Part shown: positions 3,856 through 31,706 of the stretch, one piece after another
Position numbering within the stretch: position 1 is the first letter of the stretch
How the letters are laid out: every line of letters starts with the position of its first letter
The notes under the pieces: model-generated
The model's database searches: none
Told to the model about the DNA's origin: nothing
The model's input: only the letters and a program-made list of their open reading frames with translations
Virus record (IMG/VR): IMGVR_UViG_2645727901_000008
Length of the DNA: 64,000 bases
Source: a virus
Taxonomy: Duplodnaviria > Heunggongvirae > Uroviricota > Caudoviricetes
Direction: 5' to 3' (one strand)
Made by a program: the position numbers and the translations under genes

Positions 3856-4623
3856 TCACCCCATAGATATCGAGGTTTCGGTAATAATACGTTTTGCGTC
3901 CAACTCCCATGCTGTGATCACGTCTGCAATCACACTTATCGGCGCTTGTGTGGCATAAATACGCTCTTCTCCAATTGGTGCCGAAACATCCGTAAATCCG
4001 ACTTCTTTGGCATCCTGTATCGAGCAAATCAGCGGGACCGGGACACGAACAAGGTGAGTGGTTGCTTCAAATTGTGTACCTGTCATCAGGCGAAGCCGTG
4101 CGCCCAGCGAATTACACATCAGACTCATGGTCGCTTTATCAGTTGACATTAACGTAACGTCATACGTCAGAATGGCCTGGGTGTATTCCAGTTCTGCTAA
4201 AGGCATTCCGGTATCCGGTTCGCAAAAACTGGCTACTTTTTTGCGGTCAATCTGCTGATCATCGTTGATATAATTGATATCCATAGTGCGTGAGATATTG
4301 ACCAGGGGGAGAGCATCCCGGTTAATGTTCTGGTTTTCAGGTTTTCTCCCTTGCCCGGCATTTGCGCGACGAACTGCTTTAAGAAACTCGATCGCATTGT
4401 CGAAACGGGCCACATAGACACGCTCTGCTGGTGGACGATTCAGGAATGACGCAAAGCGTTTTTCTTCCGGCGCGGGGGCCACCAGTAAGATATCAGAAAA
4501 GATATTGCTGATTAGCGTAGCAAACGCGTTATCCACGTTTTCAAAGCCCGTGGTCTGGAATTTCCCTGTGCGTGAGGTTTGCCATTCACCTGTTCGCGCC
4601 AGGAGGGTTTTATTTGAAGTCAT
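3856..4623 (-). CDS. hypothetical phage morphogenesis protein
   Basis: 255-aa ORF. ATG at 4623 overlapping the upstream stop (ATGA). Confidence 0.45.
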   Translation of the reverse strand: MTSNKTLLARTGEWQTSRTGKFQTTGFENVDNAFATLISNIFSDILLVAPAPEEKRFASFLNRPPAERVYVARFDNAIEFLKAVRRANAGQGRKPENQNINRDALPLVNISRTMDINYINDDQQIDRKKVASFCEPDTGMPLAELEYTQAILTYDVTLMSTDKATMSLMCNSLGARLRLMTGTQFEATTHLVRVPVPLICSIQDAKEVGFTDVSAPIGEERIYATQAPISVIADVITAWELDAKRIITETSISMG

Positions 4624-20911: not shown

Positions 20912-21356
20912 CTATCAAGAACTGCGCGAGGCGGCGGAACAGGCAACGCAAGATGAATGGGTAGCATATATTTTGCCGGGTCATAACGGCATTTATCCTG
21001 CGCGCACGTCTGAAGGTAGGCATTGCGGATACTTTATTGACTGGCCTGGCATTGATGGACAAAGGAATGCTGGTGCTAATGCCCGTTATATCGCGGCTAT
21101 CCCACCAAAAGTTGCACTGTCACTCCTAGGCGAAATTAAGCGCCTGGAGGACAAAAATATTGATGCCATGTGCCAAATTGCAGAGCTGGAGAGCAATCGC
21201 GCGGCGCTGGCGGCGGAGCATGGTATTCAGATTGCAATAAATGAACTGCTTGCTCTGGCCCCGCGTCTGGATAAACGAGCGATGGATGCACTCTCTGTGG
21301 CTGTGGAGCACCTGTGTAAACTGATTAAGAAGGAGGCAGTCAGTGAGCAAAATTAA
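20898..21356 (+). CDS. Ead/Ea22-like family protein (paralog 1)
   Basis: MSKINYQELREAAEQATQDEW is the characteristic Ea22-like N-terminus. GTG start. Confidence 0.55.
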   Translation: MSKINYQELREAAEQATQDEWVAYILPGHNGIYPARTSEGRHCGYFIDWPGIDGQRNAGANARYIAAIPPKVALSLLGEIKRLEDKNIDAMCQIAELESNRAALAAEHGIQIAINELLALAPRLDKRAMDALSVAVEHLCKLIKKEAVSEQN

Positions 21357-22023
21357 TTACCAGGCACTGCGTGAGGCGGCAGAAAAAGCACTACATGGTG
21401 AATGGGGTTACGAGGCAGGGGCAATCTGGAATACCTGTGATAGCGGCTATGTTCAGCACATGGCAGCGGTCGAGACTGGCGATGATGTTAGCGATGAAGA
21501 GCATATGAGCAATATGCGTTTTATCACGCTCGCCACGCCAACTGTTGTTCTTGGATTGCTTGATGAGCTTTCTGAAGCTAAAGCTGCCGAAGAGAATGAG
21601 TCCAGTTGTGCTAACAGCGTTATCGACATCGCTATCAACTGGCAGATGCGAGCCAAAGATGCAGAAGCCAAGCTGGAAGCCGCAGAGAAGCGCATTGCGG
21701 AACTGGAAACAAAAGCGAACCAGCAAACCAGAATAAGCGATAAGAATCTGACCAGGCTGATTGCCGATGCTGACAAAATGCTGGGTATGCGTTCGCCGGT
21801 TATAGACAGCGAGTGGTGGACGCTTTTACGGCAGTTCCTGATTGAACTTCAGGATCGCCGCAGAAACAGCATTTCTGAATCTGGAATCCGTGCTGAAACC
21901 CTGAATGATTTAATCCGACATATTGACAGAAACCTGGATATTGACGCGATGAAATCGCCGTTTGAACTGTCATCTGAAATTGTGGATTACGTTAATAGGC
22001 AACTGCACAAGGAGAATTCGTAA
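21343..22023 (+). CDS. Ead/Ea22-like family protein (paralog 2, longer, coiled-coil)
   Basis: MSKINYQALREAAEKALHGEW. Confidence 0.55.
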   Translation: MSKINYQALREAAEKALHGEWGYEAGAIWNTCDSGYVQHMAAVETGDDVSDEEHMSNMRFITLATPTVVLGLLDELSEAKAAEENESSCANSVIDIAINWQMRAKDAEAKLEAAEKRIAELETKANQQTRISDKNLTRLIADADKMLGMRSPVIDSEWWTLLRQFLIELQDRRRNSISESGIRAETLNDLIRHIDRNLDIDAMKSPFELSSEIVDYVNRQLHKENS

Positions 22024-22242
22024 TGCAGGTGGCATTTGTTGGCCTGTTACCGCATCCGATCCGCCTTTGGGCGGATATGTCACTCATAAAAACGCATTTT
22101 TTTACTACTGATGGCGGCATTCCGGCACCAAAGCGCCGTCATACCGGTATTGCAGCGGCACGACGAGCAGCAAAGAGACGCAGGAGAGCAAAGCGATGAA
22201 AAACCGTAAAGCAAATAAAGTGGCAAAACAGGAGGCGGCGCA

Positions 22243-22407
22243 GTGAACCAGCAAACCAGAATAAGCGATAAGAGCCTGACCAGACTGATTGCCGATGCGG
22301 ACAAGGTGCTGGAGCGGAACACACCCGTTGCCGATGAGGAATGGTGGCAGGATTTCCGGGCTGCAATGCTGGAACTTCAGGAACGTCGTCGGGAGGAGTT
22401 GAAGTGA
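22243..22407 (+). CDS. short ORF (54 aa) duplicating the C-terminal module of paralog 2
   Basis: Near-identical roughly 70-nt stretch to 21715..21785 (NQQTRISDK.LTRLIADAD). GGAGG RBS. GTGA coupling to the next gene. Confidence 0.35.
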   Translation: MNQQTRISDKSLTRLIADADKVLERNTPVADEEWWQDFRAAMLELQERRREELK

Positions 22408-22667
22408 GTGAATTAAAGTGTCGAATTAATGGCAATCAGATAGAACCGTGTGCGGTACTGGCAAAAGCACTCGAATATGGAAATCCAGCCTTTAAGAGTA
22501 AAGGCATATTTATCCCGGAACGCGTGAATATAAATACCGGCGAGCCAGGCTTAGACATTGCTCAAATTCACTCCGGCCAATATGTCGGTCGTGGTGTTGC
22601 CATGTGTTTTTGCCCGTTCTGTGGTGAAAGTCTGAAAACATGGAAAAAGGAGGCAACCAGTGAGTGA
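22404..22667 (+). CDS. small Cys-rich protein (paralog of 20612..20911)
   Basis: GGAGGAG RBS before GTG 22404. Motif FCPFCGESLKTW. Confidence 0.45.
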   Translation: MSELKCRINGNQIEPCAVLAKALEYGNPAFKSKGIFIPERVNINTGEPGLDIAQIHSGQYVGRGVAMCFCPFCGESLKTWKKEATSE

Positions 22668-23214
22668 AGTTAACTATCAGGCACTGCGTGAGGTGGCAGA
22701 GGCCGCGAAGGGGGATACGACGTGGCAGAACCTACAGGCTTTTCATGCTGCGGCAACGCTGGAGGTTGTGCAGGCGTTGCTGGATGAAAACGAAAGACTG
22801 TGTCGCGATCTGATAGCTCGTAATGGTGAGATTGAAGGGCTTCGGGAGTGGGCAGAAGAACTGGAGGCACGGGAAGTGGCTTTGCCAGTAGCGTCATGCA
22901 TTGTTGAAGATGGATGCATGTGTGTTGATGGGTTCAGTGAGTATGTAGGTCACTCGCTACCTGATGGAATGCATGAGCTTTATGCTGCCCCACCAGCGTC
23001 GGTAGTGCCGGAAGGACTAGTTAAAGCAGTGCGTTTCTATGAACAGGTAAAGTGTGAGAATCCGCCAGTCGAAACCGGAGCATGGAAAGACGCTATTGAC
23101 TGGGTGCTCAAAGAGGCTTGCCAGGCTGTAAACATTGGCATCAAAGGAGAGAGATATGGCAACTTTAACAAAAAAAGAACAAGCATGGTTGAACGAATTA
23201 CAGGACGTTCTTGA
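22660..23214 (+). CDS. Ead/Ea22-like family protein (paralog 3)
   Basis: MSEVNYQALREVAEAAKGDTTW. Confidence 0.5.
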   Translation: MSEVNYQALREVAEAAKGDTTWQNLQAFHAAATLEVVQALLDENERLCRDLIARNGEIEGLREWAEELEAREVALPVASCIVEDGCMCVDGFSEYVGHSLPDGMHELYAAPPASVVPEGLVKAVRFYEQVKCENPPVETGAWKDAIDWVLKEACQAVNIGIKGERYGNFNKKRTSMVERITGRS

Positions 23215-23419
23215 TCGCTGTCCGTCACCGAAAAAAATAGGCTTTTACACCATTGGCGATAAAAACATTTACCTGTATGACCTACGCCGCATGGATGTAA
23301 TCATGGAGGCTCTTGATAATCGTTCGTCGATGGATTGGTGTGCTGCTGTCCATGATATGAATGCCGGATTTGATGAAACGATTTTGTTCCCCTCATCAGT
23401 TGAAAGCACTGCGGGTTAA
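23156..23419 (+). CDS. hypothetical protein
   Basis: AAAGGAGAGAG RBS before ATG 23156. Confidence 0.4.
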   Translation: MATLTKKEQAWLNELQDVLDRCPSPKKIGFYTIGDKNIYLYDLRRMDVIMEALDNRSSMDWCAAVHDMNAGFDETILFPSSVESTAG

Positions 23420-23429
23420 GGAGTAACAC

Positions 23430-23813
23430 ATGACCACTATTACCAAAGAACGTATTGAATTGTTCATTAAAAATCCGCTTGAAAACGGACTTACCCGTGG
23501 CGAACAAATGGAACTGGCACGAATTGCACTGGCCTCGCTTGAGGCAGAGCCAGTTGGTGCATTCCACATTGCTGAACAGCAAGTTGACGGCACAAGTGAC
23601 TACATCAAGGATGGGGAGTGGCCTATTGATAATGGGACAATTGAAGTCTACGCCGCCCCGCCAGTACCGGTAGTACCTGCTGCATTACCTGAGAACGACG
23701 ATGAGGACGGGCAGGACATTGATTATCTTGAGCCATCTGAAGTTTACGCGCTTGGGCGAACAGCTGGCTGGAACGCCTGCCGTGCTGCCATGCTTAAGGG
23801 AGATAAATCATGA
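23430..23813 (+). CDS. hypothetical protein
   Basis: 127-aa ORF. Shares a YAAPP..VVP motif with paralog 3. Confidence 0.4.
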   Translation: MTTITKERIELFIKNPLENGLTRGEQMELARIALASLEAEPVGAFHIAEQQVDGTSDYIKDGEWPIDNGTIEVYAAPPVPVVPAALPENDDEDGQDIDYLEPSEVYALGRTAGWNACRAAMLKGDKS

Positions 23814-24181
23814 TTAATCGTACCAAGCTGGAGCACATCCTCGAATATGCCAGACAGCAGAAGCGCTTTGGTCAGCATTGCAAAATTCCGCCAGGAGATA
23901 TGGTTGAAATCGTGGAGATTGCCATGCGTAAGGCTGGCAACTATCCGGTAACTCCGGATAGTTGGATAAGCTGTAGTGATCGAATGCCTGAAAAGGGCCA
24001 GAACGTGCTTATTTCGGTGAATTTCGATAGCTCTCTGGTTGAACCGCTAATATGCTCCGCACGCTATACCGGAAGCACCTTTCGGCGCGGAGATGCAACG
24101 ATTAAGCCGGGTAATGGTATTGAGCAAGCAACTCACTGGATTCCGCTACCGGAACCGCCGCAGGAGGTTAACCGTGGCTAA
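23810..24181 (+). CDS. DUF551 domain protein
   Basis: WISCSDRMPEKGQ...THWIPLPEPP is the DUF551 signature, common in enterobacterial prophages. Confidence 0.55.
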   Translation: MINRTKLEHILEYARQQKRFGQHCKIPPGDMVEIVEIAMRKAGNYPVTPDSWISCSDRMPEKGQNVLISVNFDSSLVEPLICSARYTGSTFRRGDATIKPGNGIEQATHWIPLPEPPQEVNRG

Positions 24182-26456: not shown

Positions 26457-26849
26457 ATGGGATTCCCATCACCAGCAGCCGATTTTGCTGAAAGCAGAAT
26501 TTCGCTTGACGCACAATTCATCAAACGACCAACCGCAACATATTTCATGCGGGCCGCCTGCTCACATCTCCGTGAGGGGATTTTGCAAGGTGCAATGCTG
26601 GTGGTTGATTCATCTCTTCCACCACTGGATGGTTCTCTACTCATATGTGCCGTAGAGGGAGAATTTCGCGTAAAGCGATACCGCAAGCATCCTCGCCCAC
26701 ACCTTGAGGATCTGGAAAGCGGAAGACGTGAGTCACTGCCAGATGATGATGACAGCAGCTATTCCGGGAGTCAGGCCATATTCGGGGTAATCACATACAT
26801 CATTAACGATGCCAGGAGTGGGGAATTTGATGATTGCCCGGTGATTTAA
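26457..26849 (+). CDS. humD: HumD, UmuD-prime-like translesion-synthesis accessory protein
   Basis: MGFPSPAADFAESRISLD...ATYFMRAACSHLREGILQGAMLVVD follows the UmuD/HumD pattern. AGGAGG RBS. Confidence 0.8.
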   Translation: MGFPSPAADFAESRISLDAQFIKRPTATYFMRAACSHLREGILQGAMLVVDSSLPPLDGSLLICAVEGEFRVKRYRKHPRPHLEDLESGRRESLPDDDDSSYSGSQAIFGVITYIINDARSGEFDDCPVI

Positions 26850-26889: not shown

Positions 26890-26916
26890 TTGTGTACACA
26901 TAACGAGTACACGAGG
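26890..26916 (+). promoter_or_regulatory. phd-doc promoter/operator region with TGTGTACACA and GAGTACACGAG palindromic sites
   Basis: Palindromes lie directly upstream of the phd ATG, as in P1. Confidence 0.5.
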
Positions 26917-26921
26917 TGTTT

Positions 26922-27143
26922 ATGCAATCCATTAACTTCCGTACCGCGCGTGGCAACCTTTCTGAAGTGCTCAACAATGTTGAAGCCGGGGAAGAGGTTG
27001 AAATCACCCGCAGAGGCCGTGAGCCAGCAGTAATTGTCAGCAAGGCTACTTTCGAAGCCTACAAAAAAGCGGCGCTGGATGCTGAATTTGCATCCCTGTT
27101 TGACACCCTGGACTCCACCAACAAGGAACTGGTTAACCGATAA
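26922..27143 (+). CDS. phd: Phd antitoxin (prevents host death)
   Basis: [39 protein letters not shown]... matches P1 Phd essentially throughout. Confidence 0.9.
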
Positions 27144-27523
27144 TGAGGCATATATCACCGGAAGAACTTATTGCGCTTCATGATGCGAATATAAGCCGCT
27201 ACGGCGGCCTGCCGGGAATGTCAGATCCGGGTAGGGCAGAGGCCATTATCGGGAGAGTTCAGGCCAGAGTTGCCTACGACGAGATCACCGACCTTTTCGA
27301 AGTCTCCGCCACCTACCTGGTGGCTACGGCGAGAGGGCATATATTCAATGATGCCAATAAGCGTACCGCGCTAAACAGTGCGCTGCTATTTCTACGCCGT
27401 AACGGTATACAGGTATATGATTCTCCCGTGCTGGTGGAACTTGCGGTGGGGGCCGCAACTGGTGAAATCCCCGTATCTTCAGTAGCGGAAAAACTACGTG
27501 AATTATTTGGTTCCAATATTTGA
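27143..27523 (+). CDS. doc: Doc toxin (Fic-family kinase)
   Basis: [40 protein letters not shown]... matches the P1 Doc family. TAATG coupling to phd. Confidence 0.9.
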
Positions 27524-27606: not shown

Positions 27607-28413
27607 TTAGGCGTCAGCATCAGCATCCTCCGCTACCTCTGCTTCCACATCAGCCACGGCTTCATCGGACGGTTCTTCTTTGGCCTGATCTGCAATCGCC
27701 GCACGGCATTTCGCCCTGGCTGTAGCGATTGCTTCAGCTCGCACATCATCAGGAATCGTTGACGTGATATACATATCCACTTCTTCGGCGCGGAACACTG
27801 TTTGGTCCAGATATTCGCGTAGCATCCAGGTAAATTCGAAATCACACGCGATAATCTCTGCGCTACCTTCTGCACCATTTGAGAAATGAATAAATGCCTG
27901 TTTAGCCAAACCGATAACACGACATGCGGTTGCCAAAACAGCGACAACTAGGTTTACATTTTCACACGCTACGGGCTGATTAACGCCGGAGATTACTCCA
28001 TTTAACTGTCGGTTATATGGAAGGTAGTTTGAGATGCGTTCTACGCGCCATGTGCCAGTCAGGCTGCCATTTTTAAATATAATTGGTGTAACGGATAGCC
28101 CAAGCTCGCGTATAAGTCGTTGCGCTATAGCAGGATCATTAAACAGGTCTAATGCTATACATTCGAAAGACTGCGCAAGGGCAAACAGTTCTTCCAGAGA
28201 GTAGTCTTTGCCCCTGGCGGTGATGTAACGACGAACGCCGCTGTCTGCATCACTCCATATAGCTACGCCATGCTCTTCATTCAGCACTTCATTAAAGCCG
28301 AGATACGTCATGATAGTGCGTTCAATCGTGTCAAACGGCAGTGACATGTCGGCGTTAACAGCCACCAGCAGGCCATTACGCAAGCGGTATTGAATTGTTT
28401 TGGTGCTTTCCAT
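27607..28413 (-). CDS. hypothetical protein with an acidic Ala/Asp/Glu-rich C-terminus
   Basis: GGAG RBS 9 nt from ATG 28413. Confidence 0.45.
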   Translation of the reverse strand: MESTKTIQYRLRNGLLVAVNADMSLPFDTIERTIMTYLGFNEVLNEEHGVAIWSDADSGVRRYITARGKDYSLEELFALAQSFECIALDLFNDPAIAQRLIRELGLSVTPIIFKNGSLTGTWRVERISNYLPYNRQLNGVISGVNQPVACENVNLVVAVLATACRVIGLAKQAFIHFSNGAEGSAEIIACDFEFTWMLREYLDQTVFRAEEVDMYITSTIPDDVRAEAIATARAKCRAAIADQAKEEPSDEAVADVEAEVAEDADADA

Positions 28414-28419
28414 GTCAAA

Positions 28420-29097
28420 TCACTCCACTACAAACCAGTCACATGCCAGTAAGTCGCCTACAGAAGGAACCCACGGAACAACTACACCTTGTGCATTTTT
28501 TAAGGCGAAATAAGCACCATACGGAACGAGGTCGCCGGGGAAATATCCCTTAATGGGTTCCATTCGTGCCGGGTACTGTCCTTCAGGAACCAGCCAGCAG
28601 AATTGGTTTTCGCCGTTCCACCCGCGTCGAGCAACTTTCTTGCCATCCTTCAGCCACATCAGCGCGTCAGAAAAGTCGGCTGCTTCAAGGTCGATTTCTT
28701 CTTGCTGGGTGGTGATGCCACCAGCAGAAATAGTTACGCTCCCGGTAAGATTAATCATCACGCCGTTGTCATCCGTAATGATGACCGTGGTTCCATTTTT
28801 GGCGGCGTCGTTAACCAGGCCATAGCGTTCCTCAAATGGTTTCTCCGGGGCATAGAACAAATAACCGTTTTCATAAACGATCAGATACCCGCCAGTTTTT
28901 GGTCGGTGTTTTTGTAAAAACATTGCGTCAACACAAACTGTTGCCCCTTTTGGCTCAACGAGTTCGATGCAGCCCCAAAGTGGGGCATCAGTTACTCCGA
29001 AAATAACAACATTTTTGATTTTCGATGCACTAACGTTTTTGTGAGCTTTGTATTTGGGAAGGAACTTAAAAAGCTCTTTCGTTGCCATGTTATTCAT
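28420..29097 (-). CDS. two-domain protein with a C-terminal DUF2829 (Tad2-like, Thoeris anti-defence family) domain
   Basis: C-terminus ALMWLKDGKKVARRGWNGENQFCWLVPEG...PWVPSVGDLLACDWFVVE has the DUF2829 signature (A..G.K..R.GW.G......PW..S..D.LA.DW.VV). Confidence 0.5.
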   Translation of the reverse strand: MNNMATKELFKFLPKYKAHKNVSASKIKNVVIFGVTDAPLWGCIELVEPKGATVCVDAMFLQKHRPKTGGYLIVYENGYLFYAPEKPFEERYGLVNDAAKNGTTVIITDDNGVMINLTGSVTISAGGITTQQEEIDLEAADFSDALMWLKDGKKVARRGWNGENQFCWLVPEGQYPARMEPIKGYFPGDLVPYGAYFALKNAQGVVVPWVPSVGDLLACDWFVVE

Positions 29098-29111: not shown

Positions 29112-29606
29112 TTATAACTTTTCGTACTGAAGCGGTGAACGCTTAATTTCAAAGTGGCCTTCCGATGTGCTACCAAAGCCACCAGCACCACGTTCCGTTT
29201 CGTTGAGTTCCTCAACCTCGACTAGTGAGACTTGTTCAACACGCTCAAAAATGCCTTGCATGACAGCCATTCCTGGCTTGAGACAAACGCCTTCCCCGCC
29301 GGGATCAGTAATCAGTTTTGCCATGATTTCACCGCGATAATCGGAGTCGATAATTCCTACGCAGTTAGCCAGGCGAGTATGTTTTTTGCAGCCCAATCCG
29401 GATCGCGGATAGAGTTTCAGACACCAGCCGGGCGGGATCTCCATAGCCAGTCCGGTATACACCCACCAGCTTGAGGAAATTGCACCATTGCTATCGACGC
29501 ATGTTTTTATTTCAACAGCCTCAAAATCCATCGCCGCCGATCCGGAGGTGGCATAAGCTGGAAGTTTTGCTGCCGGATGTAGGCGTTTCACTTTTACGTA
29601 AATCAT
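29112..29606 (-). CDS. dut: dUTP diphosphatase (trimeric Dut)
   Basis: Dut motifs AAMDF, PRSGLG, GIIDSDYRGEI and the C-terminal GGFGSTS motif V. Confidence 0.8.
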   Translation of the reverse strand: MIYVKVKRLHPAAKLPAYATSGSAAMDFEAVEIKTCVDSNGAISSSWWVYTGLAMEIPPGWCLKLYPRSGLGCKKHTRLANCVGIIDSDYRGEIMAKLITDPGGEGVCLKPGMAVMQGIFERVEQVSLVEVEELNETERGAGGFGSTSEGHFEIKRSPLQYEKL

Positions 29607-30079
29607 TGTTTTTTAGCTCTCTGCGTGAAGGTGTAAACCCGACGTTTGATATGTGGAACGGTAGGAACAGGAAGACAGGAACTTTCAATAACCCCTTGCT
29701 CCTCCAGCGATCGCACCGCCCGCAAGAACTGCGACGTGTCGCCGCCAAACTGGCGGGCATAGGTGCTGCCGTTAAGAAGTATTTGAGCTATTACCCGAGC
29801 TTTTGTCTGGCTGTCACGATATGCGAATAGCCGCACGGCCTCTTCTGGCGCAATCGCTAACTGATAGCCTTTACCGGCACGGTGTCGAATGAATCCATGC
29901 GCCAGTAGGTTTTTGAGTTCGTTACGAGTGCGAACAGATCCGTAATCCAGGAAGTGCGGATTAATAACGACTGGCTTAAACCATTCCGTAGGTGCTTTAG
30001 CTAATAGAGCTAACAGCTTTCCGGACAATTCTGGATAGGAAGACGGGTAACAATTCAGAGATGGGTAATAAGTTTTCAC
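29603..30079 (-). CDS. hypothetical protein
   Basis: GTG start overlapping the upstream stop. 158 aa. Confidence 0.4.
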   Translation of the reverse strand: MKTYYPSLNCYPSSYPELSGKLLALLAKAPTEWFKPVVINPHFLDYGSVRTRNELKNLLAHGFIRHRAGKGYQLAIAPEEAVRLFAYRDSQTKARVIAQILLNGSTYARQFGGDTSQFLRAVRSLEEQGVIESSCLPVPTVPHIKRRVYTFTQRAKKQ

Positions 30080-30420
30080 CGACGCCCCCTTGCAGGATAT
30101 CGACCTGCATCAGTATCCGGTGCGATAAAGCCGGTAGTGGGGCGAGTGAAAGCGAGATTAATCTTCTCGACCATAGTGCGATAATTTTCCTGATAGTGGG
30201 CCAGGAGTTTTTCGGCGGCAATGATGGTTACTTTCCGGACGTAGCTTTCTGCTTCCTCCAGATTTCGCCAGTTTTTTTCGAGGGTAAACACAGGGACGGC
30301 CTCAAGCCCGGTCATGATGCCGAATACAACGACAGCATGACTGTTCTTAACACCAGCAGCGAAGGTTACGGTGTAACCATCCACCTTAAAGCGTCTTGAT
30401 TCCGTGATTTGACTCTGCAA
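30076..30420 (-). CDS. hypothetical protein, first gene downstream of the cre homolog
   Basis: TTG start with GGAGGG RBS. A motif site lies immediately upstream. Confidence 0.4.
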   Translation of the reverse strand: MQSQITESRRFKVDGYTVTFAAGVKNSHAVVVFGIMTGLEAVPVFTLEKNWRNLEEAESYVRKVTIIAAEKLLAHYQENYRTMVEKINLAFTRPTTGFIAPDTDAGRYPARGRR

Positions 30421-30493: not shown

Positions 30494-31522
30494 TTATGAA
30501 TCCATCAGGCGGCTATTAGCCCCCACAGACACGCCGCCACGGCGCAGATACCGCATAAGTGTTTCCGGTTTCTTCCAGGTTCCTTCCTGCATGATCTCCA
30601 CCATAGACACCTGCTTTTCAGCCATATCGATAGCGGCCCCGACACGAGCACTATGCCCGGTCCACGTCCGGTATCTCCCTTTGTTTGGCGTGGCATCTCT
30701 TTTATTCAGCAACACCCAGGCGTCGCTGAATATTTTCTCCATTGCAGGTGCAGTAAGGGGAGTTGTCGTAATCCTGGCCTTATTGCTACGGTGTATCGGC
30801 GGGAACAGCACCGCGTCAGGATGTTCACGAAGCCCGGAAACATCCAGCCAGTCATTCAGCACTGCGGTAGTGCGACGGGAAAGCACCTTATCAAGCCCGG
30901 CGGCGGTCGTTATTGTCTTCGTGTGTGAAATATGTAGCGTGACAGTGTCACCTGTTTGGTCCAGATCTCCTACACGAATACGCGAGATTTCAGACATTCG
31001 CATCAGCGTATTGTATGCAACGAAGAGGAAAGCCCGGTTACGCAGGTCCACCAGCCGTTCTGACCTGGACAACAGGACGTCGAGCAGTTTCAGATCGTCC
31101 CACCGCAGCGGTATAGCCTGGCCTGTTCGTTCGCCTTTTTCCGTTGCCGCTTCGCGCCGGATGCGCCGCATAGCCAGAGAAACACTTTTATCATCCGAAA
31201 GTGGCGGAAGGCCACAATGCGAAAGCAGCATGTTAAGCATGGCGTAGTGCTTATCAATGGTGGTCGAAGCCAGATCAGCATCATGCAGCTGAAGAAAATA
31301 CTCGCGGGCCATCTCTGGTGAGATCGGGAACCAAGCGAGCTGGCGAGCGTGGCACCATCGCGCCCAGGAGTGAAACACTAACCGGAGATCGCGCAAAGTA
31401 TTCGGCGCGTAAGCCCCCTGGTCATTCATGAACCGCATAAAGTTTTCTGCGGCCTCCTGGTACTCTTTGCCAATGTTGCGCAGAAAACCACCGGAGCTGC
31501 CAGAGATAATTAATTCACTCAT
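30494..31522 (-). CDS. cre: Cre-family tyrosine site-specific recombinase (P1 Cre homolog)
   Basis: Alignable to P1 Cre along the whole length: VSLAMRRIRRE vs VSLVMRRIRKE; AFLFVAYNTLMRMSEISRIRVGDL vs AFLGIAYNTLLRIAEIARIRVKDI; WTGHSARVGAAIDMA vs WSGHSARVGAARDMA; IMQEGTW vs IMQAGGW. The catalytic R..H..R..Y context is retained. Confidence 0.85.
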   Translation of the reverse strand: MSELIISGSSGGFLRNIGKEYQEAAENFMRFMNDQGAYAPNTLRDLRLVFHSWARWCHARQLAWFPISPEMAREYFLQLHDADLASTTIDKHYAMLNMLLSHCGLPPLSDDKSVSLAMRRIRREAATEKGERTGQAIPLRWDDLKLLDVLLSRSERLVDLRNRAFLFVAYNTLMRMSEISRIRVGDLDQTGDTVTLHISHTKTITTAAGLDKVLSRRTTAVLNDWLDVSGLREHPDAVLFPPIHRSNKARITTTPLTAPAMEKIFSDAWVLLNKRDATPNKGRYRTWTGHSARVGAAIDMAEKQVSMVEIMQEGTWKKPETLMRYLRRGGVSVGANSRLMDS

Positions 31523-31672: not shown

Positions 31673-31706
31673 CTAACTTTAAATAATGCCAATTATCTAA
31701 AGTTAG
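31673..31706. other. lox-like recombination site: CTAACTTTAAATA-ATGCCAAT-TATCTAAAGTTAG (13-bp arms, 12/13 symmetric, 8-bp asymmetric spacer)
   Basis: Sits 150 bp upstream of the cre-like start. Arms share TAACTT...ATA with loxP arms (ATAACTTCGTATA). Confidence 0.6.

Follow-up and report, generated by a model that had tools for sequence, protein, structure and literature searches.

A Dec-like OB-fold fused to a ModTad2-like domain in an accessory gene of D6-type phage-plasmids

Results

Genomic organization of the fusion gene

The window, the whole stretch of 64,000 nucleotides analysed here, contains on its minus strand an open reading frame with an ATG start and 225 codons before the stop (Table 1). 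PHROGs already holds this fusion, which phrog_872 matches from end to end (E 2.9e-58), and the N-terminal part alone is a separate entry, phrog_11049; both are listed under "unknown function". The dUTPase gene on the same strand ends 14 bases before the fusion gene; it is normal by sequence, and its counterpart in phage-plasmid D6 is annotated as a dUTP diphosphatase. The two hypothetical genes before it are joined by 4-base overlaps. They correspond to PHROGs 6669 and 1968, both of unknown function, and neither matched any Pfam or NCBIfam model. The first gene of the series encodes a tyrosine recombinase, annotated in D6 as "similar to P1 gene cre" and named dre in AY753669. The order from 5' to 3' is thus recombinase, the two hypothetical genes, dUTPase, fusion gene and isaA-like gene, six genes that are tightly packed. 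The sequence-only reading had delimited the open reading frame exactly and had described the dUTPase, the two hypothetical genes and an upstream cre homolog as we found them, and its cre homolog is the Dre of D6.

Table 1. Positions of the fusion gene, its parts and the surrounding features in the window
Feature	Position	Strand	Remarks
Fusion gene (Dec-like OB-fold, beta-rich linker, Tad2-like domain)	28420..29097	-	ORF list; phrog_872
N-terminal OB-fold, homologous to phage L Dec OB-fold	28807..29070	-	residues about 10-97
Beta-rich linker	28693..28806	-	residues about 98-135; INLTGSVTISAG resembles the start of the Dec trimeric spike
Tad2-like domain, ModTad2-like	28423..28692	-	residues 136-225; PF11195
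Beta2-beta5 insertion, hypervariable cassette, allele A	28510..28584	-	residues about 172-196; ModTad2 length
Segment absent from D6	28801..29037	-	in-frame 237-bp deletion, residues 21-99; protein and DNA alignment with D6 orf114
dUTPase, next gene upstream	29112..29606	-	PF00692 E 5.7e-15; phrog_135 dUTPase E 3.3e-62
Two hypothetical genes	29603..30079 and 30076..30420	-	equivalents of D6 orf116 and orf117
Dre-type (Cre-like) tyrosine recombinase	30494..31522	-	PF00589 E 5.3e-17; first gene of apparent operon
isaA-like gene, 6 bases downstream	27607..28413	-	46% identity to P1 IsaA, E 2e-85; phrog_2326
Promoter-like site upstream of dre	31692-31665	-	TTGGCA-16-TATAAT, 11/12 bases; consensus match only
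rox-like site, overlapping promoter-like site	31674-31705		half-site identical to D6 record
Terminator-like site	27545-27530		consensus match only

The six genes are bracketed by a promoter-like and a terminator-like site, an arrangement consistent with one operon. Upstream of this putative operon, no P1 C1 operator was matched within the window at up to three mismatches. In the P1-like phage SJ46 the gene stands directly after ssb; in P1 the C1 repressor governs the ssb operon, and this would place expression early in the lytic cycle. Pfam, NCBIfam and PHROGs yielded no function for the orf116 and orf117 equivalents or for the isaA-like gene, whose family phrog_2326 is also of unknown function.

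The C-terminal domain is a member of the Tad2 family

Sequence, comparison with solved structures and predicted fold all identify the C-terminal part as a genuine Tad2-family domain. The Tad2-like model PF11195 matched residues 141-224 over its positions 2-73 of 73 (E 1.7e-22; 80.1 bits against a cutoff of 25). The DUF2829/Tad2 signature named in the sequence-only reading is therefore present, down to the individual motifs, with RRGWNG at residues 157-162 and PWVPSVGDLLACDWFVVE at residues 208-225. A weak Pfam EF-P OB match to residues 133-163 was discarded as noise, since it coincides with the Tad2 helix and also turns up in Tad2 proteins that are unrelated. In a phmmer search of PDB sequences, ModTad2 (9eib/8v3e) was the best match (E 1e-19), followed by HgmTad2/AcrIIA7, SPO1 Tad2 and SptTad2 (E about 5e-10 to 7e-8). 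BLASTP aligned the domain to ModTad2 at 45% identity over 89 amino acids with a single one-residue gap, and the beta2-beta5 insertion is therefore of equal length in the two proteins; identity to SPO1 Tad2, HgmTad2 and SptTad2 was 28-35%. By both identity and insertion length, ModTad2 is closer to the domain than are the binders of gcADPR or cyclic dinucleotides.

An AlphaFold2 monomer model built on 48 homologues has the Tad2 fold, an N-terminal helix and an antiparallel beta-sheet with the beta2-beta5 insertion, and is superposable on the solved Tad2 structures. Confidence is high across the Tad2 core (pLDDT 84-92) except at the tip of the insertion (about 40 at residues 180-190). The structural comparison that the sequence-only reading had proposed as a check agreed with its call: the 24 best Foldseek matches of the model in the PDB were all Tad2 proteins (E 1e-7 to 6e-5, target TM 0.61-0.86). 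First among them was the ModTad2-hisADPR complex (E 1.4e-7, target TM 0.74-0.86).

In HgmTad2 the ADPR moiety is contacted by W21, N22, G23, W87, S90, T92 and D93 (PMC10680739). These residues align with W160, N161, G162, W209, S212, G214 and D215 of the window protein; six of the seven are identical, the sole exception being T92, which is replaced by G214. W160, W209, S212 and D215 are invariant across the 48 homologues. On the adenine side, the alignment shows residues that differ from those of HgmTad2, and where HgmTad2 has its cGG contacts R31 and N85 the window protein has V170 and a hydrophobic residue. The HgmTad2-type dinucleotide pocket, formed with a 35-41-residue insertion and R31, S47, F70 and N85, is absent; the insertion here has about 25 residues.

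The N-terminal domain is a Dec-like OB-fold

The first 135 or so residues have no match in Pfam or NCBIfam, and to that extent the "novel" N-terminal domain of the sequence-only reading stands. The domain is nevertheless not an orphan. When a profile of 27 diverse N-domains was compared with all PDB sequences, the decoration protein Dec of phage L was the sole significant match (E 1e-5, Dec residues 14-101); a single-sequence search also found Dec, at E 0.0045. Foldseek matched the N-domain to Dec with E 1.4e-3 and probability 1.0, at a sequence identity of 24-26%, and the domain has the OB-fold topology of three strands, a helix and two further strands (beta1-3, helix, beta4-5). The profile search and Foldseek together identify the N-terminal domain as an OB-fold homologous to Dec. 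A BFVD structure search returned only uncharacterised proteins.

The similarity to Dec runs on into the linker. The phmmer alignment pairs query residues 56-126 with Dec 53-122, and the linker segment INLTGSVTISAG aligns with ITLTGAVTGSAS, the start of the Dec trimeric spike. The linker comprises about 35 residues, is modelled with low confidence (pLDDT 47-69) and is absent from many, more distant family members. A Dec-type trimeric stalk in front of a tetramer-forming domain would create a symmetry mismatch, a feature that counts against our main reading of the protein.

Two other identities were considered for the N-domain. A shared motif towards the C-terminus, G[DG][WY][IL][IV]...G....P..F..Y, had suggested homology to the sponge Acb4 (PF13876). 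None of the 27 N-domains matched PF13876 at E<=1, hhalign against Acb4-like segments gave a probability of 1%, and no Acb4 protein was among the fold matches, which rules this homology out. Lockin forms hexamers of curved beta-sheet proteins and is reported to be absent from INPHARED; the N-domain occurs in INPHARED phages and is therefore not Lockin.

The Dec-like domain belongs to a very large phage family with sponge partners

When 1.84 billion representative proteins were searched exhaustively with a profile, 3,176 matched at E<=1e-10 (about 3,200 clusters at 50% identity) and 5,346 at E<=1e-3, the latter an upper bound, some top matches being spurious. The spurious ones are giant proteins (P0131, P0136 and others), Big_9/cadherin adhesins whose scores are summed over many partial repeats. 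The remaining members are small, most of them stand-alone proteins of 80-100 amino acids, and no Pfam model covers the family. Its consensus reads LPxYKCHKxVxAxKI ... KHxPxxGGYxVVYEDGYxSYSPAxAFExGY; at about 20 positions conservation reaches 90% or more, and H, K, H, Y, D and E side chains are among them.

Where the domain is fused to others, the partners fall into a narrow set. Among the 141 best family members, a sample biased by a profile derived from Tad2 fusions, 20 carried Sequestin (PF21825), 15 Tad2 (PF11195) and four Acb4 (PF13876); the Acb2/Tad1 hairpin (PF24729) and RyR (PF02026) occurred once each, along with three unrelated singletons. Because of this bias, a second search was seeded from a stand-alone 90-aa member. 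Most of the 36 relatives in this second sample were again stand-alone (77-158 amino acids), and their only Pfam partners were Sequestin and the Acb2/Tad1 hairpin, in one protein each. Within the two samples, any Pfam partner that occurred in at least two proteins of a sample is a sponge family (Sequestin, Tad2 or Acb4). Sequestin and Acb4 are signal sponges, and Sequestin was itself discovered through its fusion to known sponges (PMC12265669); an RyR-related protein has been described as a Thoeris sponge (PMC13251945).

In the window, as in most relatives, the gene is surrounded by early or accessory genes and is not part of a head module. In Klebsiella phage ZX1, Pseudomonas phage Dolphis, Escherichia phage Dewey, Caulobacter phage Jess A and two metagenomic phage contigs, its neighbours are small unannotated genes of the early or accessory kind. 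The exception is formed by Ralstonia phages of the GP4 group, in which it stands between the portal and capsid genes, beside a csrA moron. The literature searched gave no description of the Dec-like domain and none linking Tad2 to an OB-fold partner.

The gene is common, mosaic and frequently deleted in phage-plasmids

The window region is 97% identical to D6, in which an in-frame deletion, its junction in an A-run, has shortened the gene to orf114; the window therefore carries the intact form. PLSDB contains the gene in 229 plasmids, nearly all of them non-mobilizable and from Escherichia, Salmonella or Shigella; among the matches listed, most plasmids are about 90 kb and every copy is annotated as a DUF2829 protein. 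Proteins 96-99% identical to that of the window are encoded by E. coli plasmids. The gene is thus a common and already catalogued accessory gene of P1/D6-type phage-plasmids. In both the D6 and the SJ46 lineage it is paired with isaA. In P1, ssb is followed directly by isaA and the whole gene is missing. We considered P1 isaA and isaB as possible remnants; neither resembles the gene, and P1 IsaA instead matches the product of the downstream isaA-like gene, so P1 simply lacks it.

Alignment of the phage-plasmid homologues revealed that the segments of the gene assort independently. The N-domain exists in at least two alleles, about 55-60% identical, and two linker alleles circulate. The beta2-beta5 insertion has three alleles in proteins otherwise 90-100% identical: allele A, that of the window, equals the ModTad2 insertion in length; B is longer; and C, which is short, is accompanied by a change of GWNG to EWKG. 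In one homologue (P0016) the N-domain is 59% identical and the Tad2 core 100%; in another (P0007) the N-domain is 98% identical and the insertion is allele C. In HgmTad2 and MoTad2 the insertion forms a second ligand pocket, and exchange of this cassette is therefore what would be expected from an arms race over ligand specificity. In-frame deletions are also frequent; one (P0056) fuses dut directly to the Tad2 domain, and others remove the Tad2 domain. Such deletions and truncations speak against the main reading in that selection for the protein is not uniformly strong.

Discussion

Proposed function and ligand

The gene most plausibly encodes an accessory counter-defence protein of a D6-like phage-plasmid. 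We infer the oligomeric state, ligand and phenotype of the protein, and any function of its N-domain, along the following lines. By analogy with the solved Tad2 proteins, residues 136-225 would form a homotetramer with inter-subunit pockets, and these pockets would bind and sequester an ADP-ribose-containing alarm molecule made by a TIR protein. With the alarm molecule sequestered, the host Thoeris effector would never be switched on. We consider it probable that the domain is such a tetrameric sponge, that it takes up a TIR-derived ADPR conjugate (His-ADPR being the most likely one) and that it thereby blocks type II Thoeris. His-ADPR is favoured because the domain falls in the ModTad2 branch, with 45% identity and an insertion of equal length. 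ModTad2 sequesters the His-ADPR of type II Thoeris and inhibits neither type I Thoeris, type IV Thoeris nor CBASS. In MoTad2, cUMP or cCMP is bound in a second pocket and Pycsar is inhibited (PMC12393519), and the window protein may likewise hold these nucleotides in its second pocket and counter Pycsar. A Tad2 domain with an N-terminal fusion is functional elsewhere, in the Acb4-Tad2 protein of phage Pm86.

The choice of His-ADPR as the most likely ligand follows the nearest characterised neighbour and nothing else, and overall identity does not predict ligand specificity within Tad2. Members of the family inhibit CBASS, Pycsar and Thoeris types I, II and IV (PMC12393519), and about a quarter of the sponges tested (Acb2, Tad1 and Tad2) inhibit none of seven systems. 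Since specificity varies this widely, the ligand step is something we infer and not a result. The sequence-only reading had proposed gcADPR or cyclic-nucleotide signals. In that account the domain would mainly sequester gcADPR (3'cADPR, type I Thoeris) or the cyclic di- and oligonucleotides of CBASS, and not His-ADPR. The ADPR-binding core, GWNG and W..S..D, is indeed common to the gcADPR binders SPO1 Tad2 and HgmTad2, and most of the Tad2 homologues tested inhibit type I Thoeris, some of them several Thoeris types at once. The nearest characterised homologue (45% identity, against 31-35% for SPO1 Tad2 and HgmTad2), however, is ModTad2, which inhibits neither type I Thoeris nor CBASS, and for a dinucleotide ligand the R31 and N85 contacts and the longer insertion of HgmTad2 are missing. 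gcADPR is thus probably not the main ligand, the residues by which HgmTad2 holds cyclic dinucleotides are not conserved, and we regard this alternative as rather unlikely.

What the N-terminal domain may contribute

The N-terminal part is an accessory module, its loss not being lethal to the phage. A second and independent counter-defence function appears most likely for it, because its relatives are repeatedly fused to other sponge families. By the same guilt-by-fusion logic that revealed Sequestin, the Dec-like OB-fold might be the founding piece of an undescribed and very large phage counter-defence family, a proposal that we put forward tentatively. Such a family might provide a sixth kind of signal sponge or, alternatively, proteins that mask a structural trigger of TIR or CBASS sensors. 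If so, the window protein would be a two-headed inhibitor.

The domain might instead have no activity of its own and serve Tad2 as a scaffold, solubility or oligomerisation handle. Copies in which it is deleted (D6) or replaced in frame by dut (P0056), with Tad2 left intact, would suit such a role, as would homologues with unrelated N-terminal segments (P0068, P0070, P0075). Most family members stand alone, however, so the domain must be able to act by itself, and conservation at some 20 positions is more than a passive handle needs. We judge the handle unlikely.

Dec binds capsids through its OB-fold (PMC6449081), and the homology spans the whole of that fold and extends to the start of the spike. 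The module could therefore be capsid-binding, of the decoration type, and place the protein on capsids or procapsids, where it would mask a TIR-sensed structural protein or hold the sponge at the trigger site. The stand-alone 91-aa member of phage GP4, between the portal and major capsid genes, fits this idea, members in phages Dolphis and Jeremy are annotated "capsid decoration protein", and capsid and vertex proteins are reported as Thoeris triggers or escape sites. Against it, the window, SJ46, ZX1, Dolphis, Dewey, Jess A and the two metagenomic contigs all place the gene in the company of small accessory or early genes and not in the head module; the GP4 site, too, holds a csrA moron. Residues 21-99 are dispensable for the propagation of D6, and the entire gene for that of P1, so that the protein is not a required part of the virion; a protein on the capsid exterior would not reach the next cell; the stalk is poorly modelled, and the "decoration" annotations probably derive from Dec by homology transfer themselves. 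Capsid binding is accordingly improbable in our view.

It is very improbable that the gene is a decaying passenger or an AcrIIA7-like anti-CRISPR: many copies are truncated, frameshifted or internally deleted and a DUF2829 protein was once reported as AcrIIA7, but the intact 225-aa form is 96-99% identical in many plasmids (clusters of 389 and 453 members), the Tad2 part remains 99-100% identical where the N-domains of two lineages differ by 40%, and the anti-Cas9 activity of HgmTad2 was not reproducible (PMC10680739).

Significance

The Tad2 sponge, which we continue to favour for the C-terminal domain, is a correct call but adds little that is new; the family is well studied, and the fusion is catalogued as phrog_872 and labelled DUF2829 in public records. 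The "counter-defence locus" of the sequence-only reading is plausible for this one gene, for which a sponge role is the best reading. Nothing that we ran gives its neighbours an anti-defence function; to enlist dut, orf116, orf117 and isaA in counter-defence would go beyond the evidence, gene adjacency being the sole argument. What is new is the recognition of the N-terminal module as the Dec-like OB-fold of a huge unannotated, sponge-associated family, and the shuffling of insertion alleles in the Tad2 domain. The former ties a capsid-decoration fold to a phage family whose partners are almost all sponges, and makes that family a candidate for a new kind of counter-defence. The latter, three alleles of a pocket insertion, one of which alters the GWNG phosphate-binding motif, is in effect a natural experiment on the evolution of sponge specificity.

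The P1- and D6-type phage-plasmids found in E. coli and Salmonella are major carriers of resistance genes. A ModTad2-like sponge is common on such elements, and this leads to the prediction that their spread is limited by type II Thoeris, Pycsar or both.

Comparison with known systems

ModTad2/MoTad2 of a Myroides odoratus prophage (8V3E, apo; 9EIB, with His-ADPR) is the best match in both sequence and structure, over residues 137-225, and shares the GWNG and W-x-P-S-V-x-D motifs. It is a stand-alone protein of 89 amino acids, whereas the window protein has 135 additional N-terminal residues. SPO1 Tad2 (gp34.65), HgmTad2/AcrIIA7 and SptTad2 have the same fold and the same core ADPR-binding residues; they differ in the insertion, which is shorter in SPO1 Tad2 and, in HgmTad2 and SptTad2, longer and able to bind cGG/cGAMP.

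The joining of small phage domains in one polypeptide recalls the multi-sponge fusions Acb4-Tad2 of Pasteurella phage Pm86, Tad2-Sequestin and Acb4-Sequestin of phage Ab09, and relatives of the window gene also carry Sequestin and Acb4-like domains (P0137, P0139, P0148). The partner in the window protein differs in being an OB-fold that is not homologous to Acb4 and is not Lockin. Dec (PDB 6E3C) has in common with the N-domain the core KPxxGGYL...G.L.Y....FE..Y. It is a 134-aa virion protein with a full trimeric beta-helix, in contrast to the stalk of about 35 residues followed by Tad2 that is found here, and the window gene lies outside the head module.

Two orthologues bear the annotation "DUF2829 domain-containing protein". 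D6 orf114 (YP_009914791) is 99% identical apart from its deletion and likewise neighbours isaA. SJ46 J46_0048 is a full-length orthologue, 74% identical overall and 99-100% in the Tad2 part, and is also followed by isaA; it differs in having a different N-domain allele and a different linker allele, and in its place after ssb and not after dut.

Allelic mosaicism and deletions of the Tad2-fusion gene

Among phage-plasmids, the Tad2-fusion gene is a combinatorial mosaic (window 28423-28692; homologues P0002, P0007, P0016, P0021, and P0048) in which the N-domain comes in different alleles, the linker in two, and the Tad2 beta2-beta5 insertion in three, each combined independently of the others. 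Allele C of this insertion is short and also carries EWKG in place of the conserved GWNG motif. Deletions have reshaped the gene further. Residues 21-99 (window 28801-29037, minus strand) are intact in the window and missing from the reference phage D6 through an in-frame 237-bp deletion, which takes out most of the OB-fold and has its junction in an A-run. In some plasmids, an in-frame deletion has joined the dUTPase to the Tad2 domain, yielding the 241-aa protein P0056, found in E. coli on contigs as long as 88 kb; the entire N-terminal module is gone at its junction, ...ERGAGG|ITTQQEEIDLE.... In other variants it is the Tad2 domain that is lost, as in P0061, or a stretch covering residues 63-172, as in P0122.

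Stand-alone and multi-module relatives

Ralstonia phage GP4 (locus 3992-4491) encodes a 91-aa stand-alone member of the N-domain family, flanked by the portal and major capsid genes and followed directly by a phage-encoded homologue of csrA (carbon storage regulator). The metagenomic relatives P0137, P0139, P0148, and P0151 (270-360 aa) combine up to four modules per polypeptide, drawn from the Dec-like OB-fold, an Acb4-like domain, Tad2, and Sequestin. No Pfam model covers an additional helical segment conserved in this set (...YSHSLPEGPER...). The top of the N-domain profile search was occupied by giant proteins of 2,182-4,559 aa (P0131, P0132, P0136, P0160, and P0217), none of them a relative. 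The two that were checked, P0131 and P0136, are Big_9/cadherin-repeat adhesins whose scores were summed over 12-19 partial repeats, and the other three likewise matched the profile through numerous partial alignments.

Neighbouring genes and the rox-like site

Features on either side of the Tad2-fusion locus are listed below. The rox-like site overlaps a promoter-like site upstream of dre, and its second arm is one base off the published rox.

Features around the Tad2-fusion locus
Feature	Window position	Strand	Sequence	Remark
humD-like gene	26457-26849	plus		just downstream of the Tad2-fusion locus
phd/doc addiction module	26916-27143 and 27143-27523	plus		likewise just downstream; 94-95% identical to P1 phd/doc
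rox-like site, Dre recombinase	31674-31705		TAACTTTAAATAATGCCAATTATCTAAAGTTA	first half identical to the D6 record

The ssb-isaA region in P1 and SJ46

In P1 (record 21051-24132), isaA directly follows ssb; in SJ46, the Tad2 fusion is inserted between the two. The long annotated N-terminal extensions of P1 IsaA and SJ46 J46_0048 have the leader FHEKNTPRYC.RWWEN in common, which suggests that the starts of both proteins were mis-called within a shared upstream region.
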